Source: Promethearchaeota archaeon (GTDB lineage: Archaea > Asgardarchaeota > Lokiarchaeia > Sigyniarchaeales > SOKP01). From it: a stretch of DNA of 32,764 bases. This document shows, one piece after another, positions 20,818 through 32,657 of the stretch. The position numbers and the translations under genes were made by a program. Under the pieces are notes generated by a model that was not told the DNA's origin, did no database searches, and worked only from the letters and a program-made list of their open reading frames with translations. Location: contig JAFGGO010000082.1 of assembly GCA_016930515.1 (NCBI GenBank), forward strand, positions 1-32,764, written 5' to 3'. The stretch's first letter is position 1. The number at the start of each line of letters is the position of its first letter.

Positions 20818-20933
20818 TGGCGCACCCGGTGGGATTCGAACCCACGCGCAGTTTCCTGCACTGGATATCTGGTATTAAAGGCGATAACAATTCAATTCCA
20901 GTCCAGCGTCTTACCGGGCTAGGCTACAGGTGC
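20818..20933 (-). tRNA. tRNA-Ser(GGA) with 29-nt canonical 37/38 intron (20867-20895)
   Basis: GCACCTG/CGGGTGC acceptor, G discriminator plus encoded CCA, CTGGA-CT-GGA-A^A-TCCAG anticodon arm, long variable arm, BHB helix CTGG/CCAG. Confidence 0.93.
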
Positions 20934-27166: not shown

Positions 27167-28027
27167 TCAATCGAAAAAAACGGTAATAATGTCTCCAACA
27201 TTGCAGCCTATGGTGCTTGCCGCAGATCCTTGATTGATTGATATTTCCAAGAATCCGCTGGAACCTTGTAAAAAAAATAATGTTCCTTTAGGCATGGATG
27301 CGAAATGGGACCTAAATTCTCCTGAAAAATCGTTTCCATTGTACCTTATTTTTATTAAATTGCCCTGAGATAATACTAGTGTTGAATCTTTCACACGATT
27401 GCCCTCCAAGGAGACATTAGTCGTTACATTTCCAAAACTATCGATGTAAAAAACGATACACCGAATTTTTTTGTTATCCATATCGAATTGATATTCAATC
27501 GGGTATTTTTCAAGAGTTGAAATTCTAAATGAAGAGCCGAATTTACCAAGCGGCGTTCCCTTCAAAAGATGCGCCCCTACAGGAGCCATTATGTCTCTCC
27601 CGTGAAAAGTCGAAGAAACGGGATTGTTAAAATAAGCATTATCGTTCAATTCAACGCATTCAACGATTTCTTTGGAATCAAATGCTATCGAAAGAATTCC
27701 ATTATTAGGAGCAATAAAATATTGTTGGGATTTCGTCTTGGCACAAATTACTTCACGGTTTCCTCCAACACCGGGATCCACAACAATTATAAAAACAGTA
27801 TCTTCAGGAAAATGTTTACAAGCATTTTTAGTTATATATCCTGCCTCCAAGATTGAAAACGGAGCGATTTCGTGAGATACATCGATAATATTCACATTTG
27901 GATTAATTTTTAGAATGATGCCCTTCATGCTCGCCACATAATGATGTCCCTTCGTCCCAAAATCCGTAAGCAAGGCAATAACACCACGATCCGGATTTGG
28001 TTTTTTAATATTCATGTCAAAAATCAA
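27167..28027 (-). CDS. SAM hydroxide adenosyltransferase (DUF62, fluorinase/chlorinase family)
   Basis: LLTDFG, VVDPGVG..R, PNNG, STFHGRDI.AP, IDSFGN..TN and LEISINQGSA. Confidence 0.93.
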   Translation of the reverse strand: MIFDMNIKKPNPDRGVIALLTDFGTKGHHYVASMKGIILKINPNVNIIDVSHEIAPFSILEAGYITKNACKHFPEDTVFIIVVDPGVGGNREVICAKTKSQQYFIAPNNGILSIAFDSKEIVECVELNDNAYFNNPVSSTFHGRDIMAPVGAHLLKGTPLGKFGSSFRISTLEKYPIEYQFDMDNKKIRCIVFYIDSFGNVTTNVSLEGNRVKDSTLVLSQGNLIKIRYNGNDFSGEFRSHFASMPKGTLFFLQGSSGFLEISINQGSAASTIGCNVGDIITVFFD

Positions 28028-30187: not shown

Positions 30188-30340
30188 GCTCCCGTAGCTC
30201 AGCTTGGTTAACGAGTACAGGTTTTTGTGCTTGATCGACAAGCGCAGGTCTTATAAATGGCCCGTGGACCTACATTGGAACACATCCGGTCCACGATCAG
30301 TAAAAACCTGAGATCGGGGGATCGAAGCCCCCCGGGAGCA
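30188..30340 (+). tRNA. tRNA-Ile(UAU) with two introns (D-arm 30211-30239; anticodon loop ~30257-30305)
   Basis: GCTCCCG/CGGGAGC acceptor, A73, CAGGT-CT-TAT-AA-ACCTG after splicing, GGGGG-ATCGAAG-CCCCC T arm, BHB motifs at both introns, T-tract downstream, no encoded CCA. Confidence 0.87.
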
Positions 30341-30456
30341 TTTTTCTTCATTCCTTATCAAAGATTATCTTCATACTTTATTCATATTAGAAAAAACACT
30401 TATTTCTTGAAAAAACTAAAAAGAAGGAAAAGATTAAAGAAAAAAGCGGAATAAAT

Positions 30457-31269: not shown

Positions 31270-32634
31270 TTATTTTACGACTTGTTGGTAGGCTTTTTCA
31301 AGCCGCTTGACGGCAGATGTGACGTCTTCTTTAGTTGCACCAATTGCGGCGTTCATCACGATGTAAGGCACGGAATACTCGTCGCTACAAGCCCCAAATT
31401 TACTCTGGGAAGGATTAAACACTCTTGGGCCCGTGACCCTCAAGTTATAAAGTGCCCCACCTAACGCAGTACGTTGATTTTCTTTAAGGCGTTTCAAAGA
31501 CATGGAAACCGCCACGGGATTAAAAATATTCATGACCCGCTCTCCCACGCTGTCGGCAAAAGATTTTAAGAGCACTTCAAGCAATTCTCGATTTTCTTGC
31601 TGTTCTTTCACGAGTCTTTGGTATCCACTCACGCCAAGGGACAACATGGCAACTAGAAAATTAACAACGGGAGTTGCGCACGCCCTACCAGCGTAGGCTT
31701 GACTGATCATGTCCACGACGTTCTTGTTTGGAGAAACGATTACCGAACCACCAACGGGCGTTAAGAAATTCTTATCGGTGGATTGGATCACGGCATCCAC
31801 GCGACCCGCGTCCATCGCTACTCGGATCAATTTCATCCACTCGGGACTTTGTACCCCATAGGCGTTAACGATCACATGCACGAGATCTTTCTCTCGAGCG
31901 AATTTGCTTATTTCCTTGATAGCGTCGTGTTCTCTGGGAGGAAAATAGCTCGTAAAAGACAATACGGCAAAGCACGAATCGTCGTATTTCCCTGTTACAT
32001 CTTCAAAAGGTATCCGTACTGCGTCTCCCGACACTTTTCCTTTAGCAATCTTGGGCGTCATTCCAACGAACTCCAGGGCCTTTAACAGGGATTTATGGTC
32101 GATTTGAGGTACGATCACGCACTTCTTGTGTTCATTCTCAGGATCACCAATTTTGGGCTTTAAAGCGCTTAAAGTCAAGGCTAACGACATTCCAGTGGCT
32201 AAAGGCACGACTAATGCGCCCTTCACACGGGGTAATCCGAAAGTCTTGAAAAAATTCCTCGCCAGATAATTTGAAAGTTCGTACATGATCGAGGCCCCAG
32301 GCGCCTTCGGTTGGGGTGCAGATAAATAGCCGCTCCTACCCACGCCGTGACAAAACCCCGCCGAAGTCTTTAAATGAATTTTAGATGCGATTCTTGCCTC
32401 TCGTTCGCCCACTCTCGAGGCACTTGAGTCCTTATCAGTGTCCATGTTCGATAACATAGCGAGAAATACCTCGATCTGCTCGTCGCTCCATGGTTCTCGC
32501 GGAACTGCCTTTTGTTCGAGCAAGACTTTCATTGGACCTAAGAAGTCGTTTAGGATCGTTTGTCCCCGACGAAGCATGTTTTCGGGAATCGGCGAGTTTA
32601 AAAAATAATCAATAATTTTACTGAAATCAACCAT
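31270..32634 (-). CDS. spcS: O-phosphoseryl-tRNA(Sec) selenium transferase (SepSecS)
   Basis: VGEREAR, HGVGRSG....QPKAPG.S, P.ATGMSL, NAYGVQS, GRVDAVIQSTDKNFLTPVGG (PLP Lys) and YAGRA. Start set at ATG 32634. Confidence 0.95.
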   Translation of the reverse strand: MVDFSKIIDYFLNSPIPENMLRRGQTILNDFLGPMKVLLEQKAVPREPWSDEQIEVFLAMLSNMDTDKDSSASRVGEREARIASKIHLKTSAGFCHGVGRSGYLSAPQPKAPGASIMYELSNYLARNFFKTFGLPRVKGALVVPLATGMSLALTLSALKPKIGDPENEHKKCVIVPQIDHKSLLKALEFVGMTPKIAKGKVSGDAVRIPFEDVTGKYDDSCFAVLSFTSYFPPREHDAIKEISKFAREKDLVHVIVNAYGVQSPEWMKLIRVAMDAGRVDAVIQSTDKNFLTPVGGSVIVSPNKNVVDMISQAYAGRACATPVVNFLVAMLSLGVSGYQRLVKEQQENRELLEVLLKSFADSVGERVMNIFNPVAVSMSLKRLKENQRTALGGALYNLRVTGPRVFNPSQSKFGACSDEYSVPYIVMNAAIGATKEDVTSAVKRLEKAYQQVVK

Positions 32635-32657
32635 GAGGAGCACTTTATTATTAATAA

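Follow-up and report, generated by a model that had tools for sequence, protein, structure and literature searches.

A two-intron tRNA-Ile(UAU) gene as the probable AUA decoder of an Asgard archaeon without detectable TiaS

How does an archaeon read the isoleucine codon AUA without also reading the methionine codon AUG? Bacteria discriminate AUA from AUG with lysidine, archaea with agmatidine and eukaryotes with inosine or pseudouridine, so that this is one of the few points where the three domains differ in chemistry. The question is raised by a 32,764-nt stretch of DNA (contig JAFGGO010000082.1 of assembly GCA_016930515.1, hereafter the window) from a Promethearchaeota archaeon of the class Lokiarchaeia, which carries a tRNA gene with the anticodon UAU, interrupted by two introns. 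The host genome is a draft of 4.0 Mb in 190 contigs, 94% complete and with 35% GC, and it makes heavy use of the codon: ATA accounts for 28.9 per 1000 codons and 30% of the Ile codons in 1416 long open reading frames, and is commoner than ATG. Our analysis makes it very likely that the locus is a functional tRNA-Ile(UAU) gene and the AUA decoder of an archaeon of the Lokiarchaeia type that lacks TiaS, the enzyme through which archaea usually modify tRNA-Ile2(CAU) with agmatidine to read AUA. The parts of the gene are as follows.

30188-30340, forward strand: tRNA-Ile(UAU) gene from G1 to A73, a precursor body of 153 nt (Rfam RF00005, ARAGORN after splicing, 29 orthologs).
30188-30210, forward strand: exon 1, positions 1-21, with the 5' strand of the acceptor stem, U8 A9, D stem GCTC and D loop AGCTTGGTTA.
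30211-30239, forward strand: intron 1, 29 nt, in the D loop between positions 21 and 22, with a strict bulge-helix-bulge (BHB) motif of the form hBHBh' (BHB scan).
30240-30256, forward strand: exon 2, positions 22-38, with D stem AAGC, G26, anticodon stem CAGGT and loop CTTATAA.
30252-30254, forward strand: anticodon TAT (U34 A35 U36), in a loop CTTATAA that is invariant in 29 of 29 orthologs and in the genes of families f8 and f26.
30257-30305, forward strand: intron 2, 49 nt, in the anticodon loop between positions 38 and 39, with a relaxed BHB of the form HBh' (BHB scan, orthologs).
30306-30340, forward strand: exon 3, with ACCTG, variable loop AGATC, T arm GGGGG ATCGAAG CCCCC, CGGGAGC and A73.
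30321-30327, forward strand: T loop ATCGAAG, in which A54 (30321) and G60 (30327) replace T54 and Y60.

Removal of both introns leaves a 75-nt cloverleaf that ARAGORN calls tRNA-Ile(tat). Its acceptor stem is GCTCCCG/CGGGAGC, and the universal tRNA nucleotides U8, A14, G18 G19, A21, U33, G53, U55 C56, A58 and C61 are all present, T54 being replaced by A54 together with G60. The anticodon UAU is set in a body of the Ile type, with A73, A37 and A38, which resembles both types of Ile tRNA: the T arm is identical to that of tRNA-Ile(GAU) from relatives, and the anticodon stem is nearer to that of a CAU tRNA (L133) described below. The CCA end is not encoded, and a T-run (30341-30345) lies directly 3' of A73. 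These results agree with an earlier note on this DNA, which had read the locus as a tRNA-Ile with a UAU anticodon, two BHB-type introns and A54; its sequence details all proved correct when compared with the window by script, and the BHB scan and the ARAGORN call on the spliced 75-mer support its reading.

The same note had expected the gene to be missed by standard tRNA finders, and so it was. ARAGORN gave no match to the unspliced gene anywhere in the window, and a whole-genome tRNA search skipped it. With the default filters of Rfam the gene was likewise missed, the sole match in the window being another tRNA at 20821-20933; only under lax filters did cmscan align the unspliced gene with the Rfam tRNA model RF00005, scoring 38.8 bits where the cut-off is 29. 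Since such genes escape the standard finders, published censuses of Asgard tRNAs probably under-report them.

The unspliced RNA folds far below shuffled sequences (z = -5.5), and the gene is widely conserved. BLAST of the 153-nt gene against 60 relatives recovered it from 29 of the 36 genomes of the host family, and simple patterns extended its range to the sister family f2 and to two more genera. Conservation was assessed on 29 orthologs from families f1 and f2, spliced against the predicted mature sequence. The loop CUUAUAA and A73 are invariant in all 29, whereas compensatory changes occur in all stems. The acceptor stem exists in eight versions, each fully complementary, the T stem in six complementary versions, and the anticodon stem as CAGGT/ACCTG, CGGGT/ACCCG or CTGGT/ACCAG. 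The locus is thus a real tRNA-Ile(UAU) gene, chance being excluded by the folding z-score and the compensatory changes among the orthologs.

Intron 1 is bounded by a complete BHB. Its central helix H joins TGGT (30205-08) to ATCG (30234-37) with four of four pairs and is flanked by the bulges TAA (30209-11) and ACA (30238-40). The inner helix h' is a 9-bp hairpin (30212-20 / 30225-33) that includes G-U pairs, the outer helix h has 3 bp, GCT (30202-04) with AGC (30241-43), and the predicted cuts fall after 30210 and after 30239. Helix H is still paired in the 21 orthologs that carry intron 1, with ATCG, ATCA, GTCA, ACCG or GCCA on the intron strand. The BHB geometry would equally allow two other registers, with introns of 27 nt and 25 nt; they were rejected on the D loops of 12 and 14 nt that they imply and on the junctions of orthologs without the intron.

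Those orthologs, five from f1 and two from f2, read GCTC-AGNTTGGTNA-AAGC-G at this place, exactly as the predicted junction does, which settles the junction of the 29-nt intron and rejects the alignment proposed by Rfam. In that alignment, GAGT-A-CAGGT (30213-30222) would form the 3' strand of the D stem and the anticodon stem, followed by a single insert of ~80 nt and perhaps by another anticodon. Apart from the cmscan alignment itself, the four D-stem pairs given by GCTC/GAGT speak for such an arrangement, as does the 8-bp pairing of CAGGTTTT with AAAACCTG in the minimum free energy (MFE) fold. However, the supposed insert is not bracketed by a BHB, ARAGORN rejects the corresponding splice variant and the D loop would have 12 nt, whereas the intron-1-less orthologs, with GCTC-AGNTTGGTNA-AAGC-G-CAGGT, are equal to the two-intron product. 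We regard the single insert as scarcely credible and retain the two-intron structure.

Intron 2 has a less regular motif. Its central helix pairs TTAT (U33-U36, 30251-54) with GTAA (30300-03), again with four of four pairs, next to a 5' bulge AAA, and the 3-bp helix h' of TGG (30258-60) with TCA (30297-99) is continued by an 8-bp stem. With C32 facing a bulge of 2 nt, the outer helix falls out of register, and the BHB is therefore relaxed. Cuts placed symmetrically from H lie after A38 (30256) and before A39 (30306) and leave a 7-nt loop; owing to the runs of A, a cut between positions 37 and 38 would give the same product. Over 24 aligned orthologs, pairing reaches 97% in the anticodon stem plus central helix, against 34-45% in slid controls, and intron 2 keeps UUAU/RUAR in family f1. 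In family f2 and in the f1 genus g8 (L165, L166, L154) the helix is CUUA/URAG and the same intron takes the canonical 37/38 register, whereas most of f1 has the 38/39 register; between lineages the splice motif seems to have shifted by a single nucleotide, with the product unchanged. In addition, the host genome contains two genes with the tRNA_int_endo domain (EndA), on contigs C83 and C30, which suggests a broad-specificity two-subunit endonuclease. A two-subunit splicing endonuclease has been reported to cut non-canonical motifs (PMC5829648).

Further introns occur among the orthologs in the T loop, in the variable region and at a second site in the D loop, up to a maximum of four per gene. 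The introns of the D, variable and T loops come and go, whereas the anticodon-loop intron is present in all 29 orthologs from f1 and f2 and in the genes of f8 and f26.

In the T loop ATCGAAG, A54 is unique to tRNA-Ile(UAU) among the tRNA-like genes found in the host genome. Orthologs have either ATCGAAG or TTCRAAT, A54 going with G60 and T54 with T60. T54 is found in most of them, and the ATCGAAG form in g1, g8, f2 and f26. Five tRNA-Ile(GAU) genes from relatives all have GGGGG ATCGAAG CCCCC, and the loop reads ATCGAAA in a CAU tRNA from a TiaS-positive family. Being common to the tRNA-Ile(GAU) of relatives, A54/G60 is a lineage trait of Ile tRNAs and neither a sign of decay nor a eukaryotic mark. 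A54 lends no support to the heading "eukaryote-style" of the earlier note: the residue is shared with tRNA-Ile(GAU), is not a trait of eukaryotic tRNA-Ile and gives way to T54 in most orthologs. Loops with A54:A58 and a purine at position 60 are known from the eukaryotic initiator tRNA and from animal tRNA-Ala(AGC), and were reported as unseen in archaeal tRNA-Ala (PMC7566577, PMC7912444). The present tRNA follows the same rule of A54, purine 60 and an enlarged D loop as eukaryotic initiator tRNA-Met and animal tRNA-Ala(AGC). Unlike them, it is an archaeal elongator tRNA-Ile with a normal G15:C48, in which the loop alternates with TTCRAAT. Another variant was observed in family f8, where the tRNA-Ile(UAU) L202 (genome G061) has the T arm ATGGG TCCGAAT CCCAT, with C at position 55.

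Whether this tRNA is the one that reads AUA depends on what else the organism possesses. The TiaS_FLD profile (PF08489) has no match in the host genome, nor does a full-length Asgard TiaS protein used as query. The earlier note had proposed a search for tiaS and a survey of UAU anticodons across Asgard archaea. Among 61 genomes of the class, with four single-contig ones in their number, the profile matches in none; in the reference archaea, which serve as positive control, it matches in four of four. It also matches 171 of the 301 sampled Asgard genomes, the loss being clade-specific: TiaS is at zero in nine families (f1, f2, f5, f6, f8, f17, f18, f21 and f26; 0/68 in f1, 0/7 in f2, 0/19 in f17) and near-universal in the others. 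UAU tRNAs were recovered in four of the TiaS-less families, f1, f2, f8 and f26, whereas five TiaS-positive genomes, closed or of high quality, gave none with the same UAU pattern. The pattern AGCR-N5-CTTATA found no UAU tRNA in f17 (G114), f18 (G081) or f21 (G097), a result from one genome each with a simple pattern that is uninformative either way. From a class without TiaS that carries the UAU gene it follows that AUA is very probably read by tRNA-Ile(UAU).

Some observations on related tRNAs belong here. In G081 a CUUAUA loop lies directly 3' of the T-arm-like GGGTTCAAATCCC (L182), and this might be a permuted or split gene. L133, from genome G131 of the TiaS-positive family f10, is a CAU tRNA with an Ile-like body, an intron in the anticodon loop and the T loop ATCGAAA, with A54; its intron lacks ACA at +17 to +20, and its 17-mer is found in at least six f10 genomes. 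L133 is possibly the tRNA-Ile2 substrate of TiaS. A search of the 301 genomes with a 17-mer pattern and 3 mismatches gave noise, with about as many matches as the reversed control, and the candidates with an AAU anticodon that arose from it are coding sequence and no tRNAs.

Within the host genome, a stem-loop-rule census for CAU, GAU and UAU tRNAs was swamped by false positives, and stricter scans led to ~40 tRNA-like genes. The only CAU tRNA found in this incomplete census is the initiator tRNA-Met at C31:4088-4185 (forward strand), and the scans yielded no CAU gene whose body is of the Ile type. The initiator has A1:U72, a GGG/CCC anticodon stem and the loop CUCAUA with a 22-nt intron, and ARAGORN miscalls it as tRNA-Ser(aga); other ARAGORN calls in the host genome, for example Tyr(ata), Val(aac) and Ser(act), likewise seem to be intron artefacts. 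BLAST of the host genome with the tRNA-Ile(GAU) genes of relatives gave the T arm of tRNA-Ile(UAU) as its sole match.

Several points weigh against a functional tRNA-Ile(UAU) as the AUA decoder. The D stem of the host copy contains a C13:A22 mismatch, and the second BHB is non-canonical, with its outer helix out of register. As to expression and splicing data, the locus had zero read cover in two metatranscriptome runs, and likewise in two DNA runs. The negative result for TiaS comes from homology searches, and the tRNA inventory of the draft is incomplete: neither an elongator tRNA-Met nor a tRNA-Ile(GAU) was found in it, so a tRNA-Ile2(CAU) could be hidden. Finally, misreading of AUG is to be expected from a U34 that carries no modification.

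The mismatch, the relaxed second BHB and the unrecorded transcripts, together with A54 for T54, might point to a decaying or unexpressed pseudogene in which neither insertion is ever removed. Such decay is highly improbable in view of the orthologs, where compensatory changes preserve all four stems in 29 genes, the anticodon loop is invariant and the BHB helices are kept through wobble-compatible changes. Many orthologs have U13, giving a U13-A22 pair, which makes the C13:A22 mismatch private to a few copies; A54/G60 is common to tRNA-Ile(GAU), and the T-run directly 3' of A73 forms a terminator. A second alternative makes the UAU tRNA auxiliary, AUA being read mainly by an undetected tRNA-Ile2(CAU) whose modifying enzyme is either no relative of TiaS or a TiaS that has diverged beyond detection. 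The recovered tRNA set is indeed far from complete, and the missing tRNA-Ile(GAU) and elongator tRNA-Met imply that hidden tRNA genes exist. On the other hand, the profile that detects no TiaS domain in any of the 61 genomes of the class matches 171 other Asgard genomes, the UAU gene is under purifying selection in at least four TiaS-less families, and the host scans recovered no CAU gene with an Ile-type body. We therefore consider this alternative unlikely and keep tRNA-Ile(UAU) as the probable AUA decoder.

In this role the gene would be processed in three steps. The splicing endonuclease would cut the 153-nt precursor at the strict BHB (21/22) and at the relaxed motif (38/39), the exons would be ligated and CCA added, and an isoleucyl-tRNA synthetase (IleRS) of the archaeal/eukaryotic type would charge the 75-nt tRNA. 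What we infer is that splicing and charging with Ile take place and that this tRNA alone is responsible for AUA. U34 presumably needs a modification that keeps it from reading AUG. In the archaeal/eukaryotic type of IleRS, a conserved arginine recognises the carbonyl of U34 or pseudouridine-34 (PMC11685878).

A candidate site for such a modification emerges from the anticodon intron, which contains the following elements, together with one from intron 1.

30247-30262, forward strand: fold-back S1, pairing G29-C32 (30247-50) with intron GGCC (30259-62), with the loop UUAUAAAU opening with U33-U34 (precursor MFE).
30263-30295, forward strand: intron 2 hairpin S2, a perfect 8-bp stem of CGTGGACC (30263-70) with GGTCCACG (30288-95) and a 17-nt loop opening with U-ACA.
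30272-30274, forward strand: conserved ACA, 20 nt 3' of U34 and one nt past the 12-nt continuous strand of S1 and S2.
30217-30226, forward strand: copy of the 5' strand of the anticodon stem within intron 1, ACAGGTTTTT, which can pair with AAAAACCTG at 30302-30310.

S1 is mutually exclusive with the anticodon stem and the BHB. Just 3' of the loop the intron keeps GRCC, which is able to pair with G29-C32 and abuts S2. S1 is 92.6% paired over 24 orthologs, and all its changes are one-sided, as one of its strands is exon. Over the same number of orthologs S2 is 95% paired, again against 34-45% in slid controls, with compensatory changes in four of its six core pairs. The ACA lies at +17 to +20 from U34 in 30 of 30 distinct orthologs and in 11 of 11 lineage representatives from four families, where it is the top-scoring trinucleotide, and at that place in none of nine other intron-bearing tRNAs of the host genome. 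A spacing of 13 nt (range 12-14) separates the end of the loop from the ACA despite a varying split between S1 and S2 (2+10, 3+9, 4+8 or 5+8), and the fold-back loop has 6-8 nt across orthologs and starts with UUAUA in all. For the precursor from which intron 1 has been spliced, the MFE structure is S1 plus S2, at -51.3 kcal/mol, compared with -48.2 for the BHB-competent fold.

The host genome encodes Cbf5 and Pus10, as do most archaea. A T loop on a 12-bp minihelix of acceptor and T stems, ending in N73-CCA, is the object recognised by guide-independent Cbf5 and by Pus10. As modelled, the shape formed by S1, S2 and the ACA resembles this minihelix, with A37 at the position of A58, a quasi-continuous helix of 12 bp, one spacer nucleotide and ACA in place of CCA. 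We tentatively propose that the never-lost anticodon intron is a modification handle, in which a switch from BHB to fold-back before splicing might allow a pseudouridine synthase (Cbf5 through its PUA domain, or Pus10) to convert U34. Two features speak against such a handle, which we hold to be possible rather than probable: the genes of f8 and f26 have an A facing C31 in S1 and only 4-5 bp in S2, and the closing pair is C-G rather than G53-C61.

An H/ACA guide RNA was also considered, defined by a hairpin with an internal pseudouridylation pocket, a kink-turn (K-turn) or K-loop and an ACA 14-16 nt from the target, and was rejected: despite the ACA at a fixed distance there is no two-sided pocket, and no K-turn was seen, the geometry being closer to a T-arm/acceptor minihelix that ends in an ACA tail. 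Inspection of intron 2 by eye found no C or D boxes of a C/D guide. In the MFE fold of the full precursor, the intron 1 copy ACAGGUUUUU and AAAACCUG at the end of intron 2 form an 8-bp helix. Many orthologs keep the copy of the anticodon stem in intron 1, and L160 has CGGGT both there and in the anticodon stem itself. In this model, the copy might free G29-C32 for the fold-back, or might order the two splicing events.

The window contains further genes near this locus. The second tRNA gene (20821-20933, reverse strand; Rfam 43.2 bits) has a 31-nt insert in the anticodon loop and a long variable arm and is called tRNA-Ser(gga) by ARAGORN. About 900 bp downstream of tRNA-Ile(UAU), a SepSecS gene for O-phosphoseryl-tRNA(Sec) selenium transferase (31270-32643, reverse strand; Pfam E 2e-112) indicates the presence of the archaeal/eukaryotic selenocysteine route in this organism. 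A gene of the SAM hydroxide adenosyltransferase family lies at 27167-28027.

How new is this arrangement? Nanoarchaeum equitans and Candidatus Korarchaeum cryptofilum lack tiaS and have a TAT tDNA-Ile; in a set of 167 archaeal genomes no others did (PMC6000648; PMC3575796, its refs 16, 17). They share with the present case an encoded UAU in a TiaS-less archaeon, and the Korarchaeum gene is also intron-bearing and GAU-like. By their descriptions, they differ from the Asgard gene, which extends over a class and further families and has two to four introns, A54/G60 and the intron fold-back with its ACA. The TiaS-less UAU strategy, in which UAU replaces agmatidine, is thus known from Nanoarchaeum and Korarchaeum and is now seen in Asgard archaea. 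A literature search returned no report that joins TiaS or agmatidine with Asgard archaea or Lokiarchaea. Related work on tRNA genes with several introns in Asgard archaea and Thermoproteales (PMC11291895; bioRxiv 10.64898/2026.10.13.758758; PMC4090602) describes the same non-canonical BHB motifs, D-arm introns missed by annotators, and intron gain and loss; UAU, TiaS and AUA decoding are unmentioned in these papers.

The cytosolic tRNA-Ile(UAU) of eukaryotes likewise has the same anticodon; each of its copies carries an adjacent intron, which pairs with the anticodon. There, pseudouridine-34 and -36 are made by Pus1 on the intron-containing precursor, and the gene of Cyanidioschyzon merolae has three introns (PMC9602550), located in its D arm, its anticodon arm and its T arm as in several Asgard orthologs. 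In contrast to the eukaryotic tRNA, the partner of the present one in relatives is GAU, splicing would proceed by BHB recognition and the candidate handle resembles a substrate of Cbf5 or Pus10. Reviews treat the UAU anticodon as the eukaryotic rescue of the codon-box problem (PMC8879553), and the earlier note had suggested a eukaryote-like route of AUA decoding. This suggestion holds in so far as a UAU tRNA occurs in an organism without TiaS, but the route is not specifically eukaryotic, as the same solution has been published for Nanoarchaeum and Korarchaeum (PMC6000648, PMC3575796). Moreover, the label "eukaryote-style" is at odds with the partner Ile tRNA of the relatives, which is GAU and not AAU/IAU. 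Pseudouridylation that depends on the intron, which the note cited from yeast, may occur here too, as it would be consistent with an anticodon intron that no ortholog has lost and with the conserved ACA.

In bacteria, Mycoplasma mobile has an intron-less tRNA-Ile(UAU) with an unmodified U34 and a bacterial-type IleRS adapted through Arg865 (PMC3575796). It resembles the present case in the loss of the C34-modifying enzyme together with the wobble change from C to U, AUA being read by UAU; by contrast, the archaeal-type IleRS already has an arginine able to contact U34 (PMC11685878).

Our results describe an entire Asgard class, and several families beyond it, that dropped TiaS and very probably rely on an intron-bearing tRNA-Ile(UAU) to read AUA, 30% of the isoleucine codons. 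Should the anticodon intron indeed act as a modification handle, UAU would read AUA without AUG, and archaea would have their own counterpart, different in mechanism, to the eukaryotic intron-dependent formation of pseudouridine-34. The occurrence of the UAU tRNA in such a class makes the origin of the eukaryotic AUA route testable in cultivated relatives.

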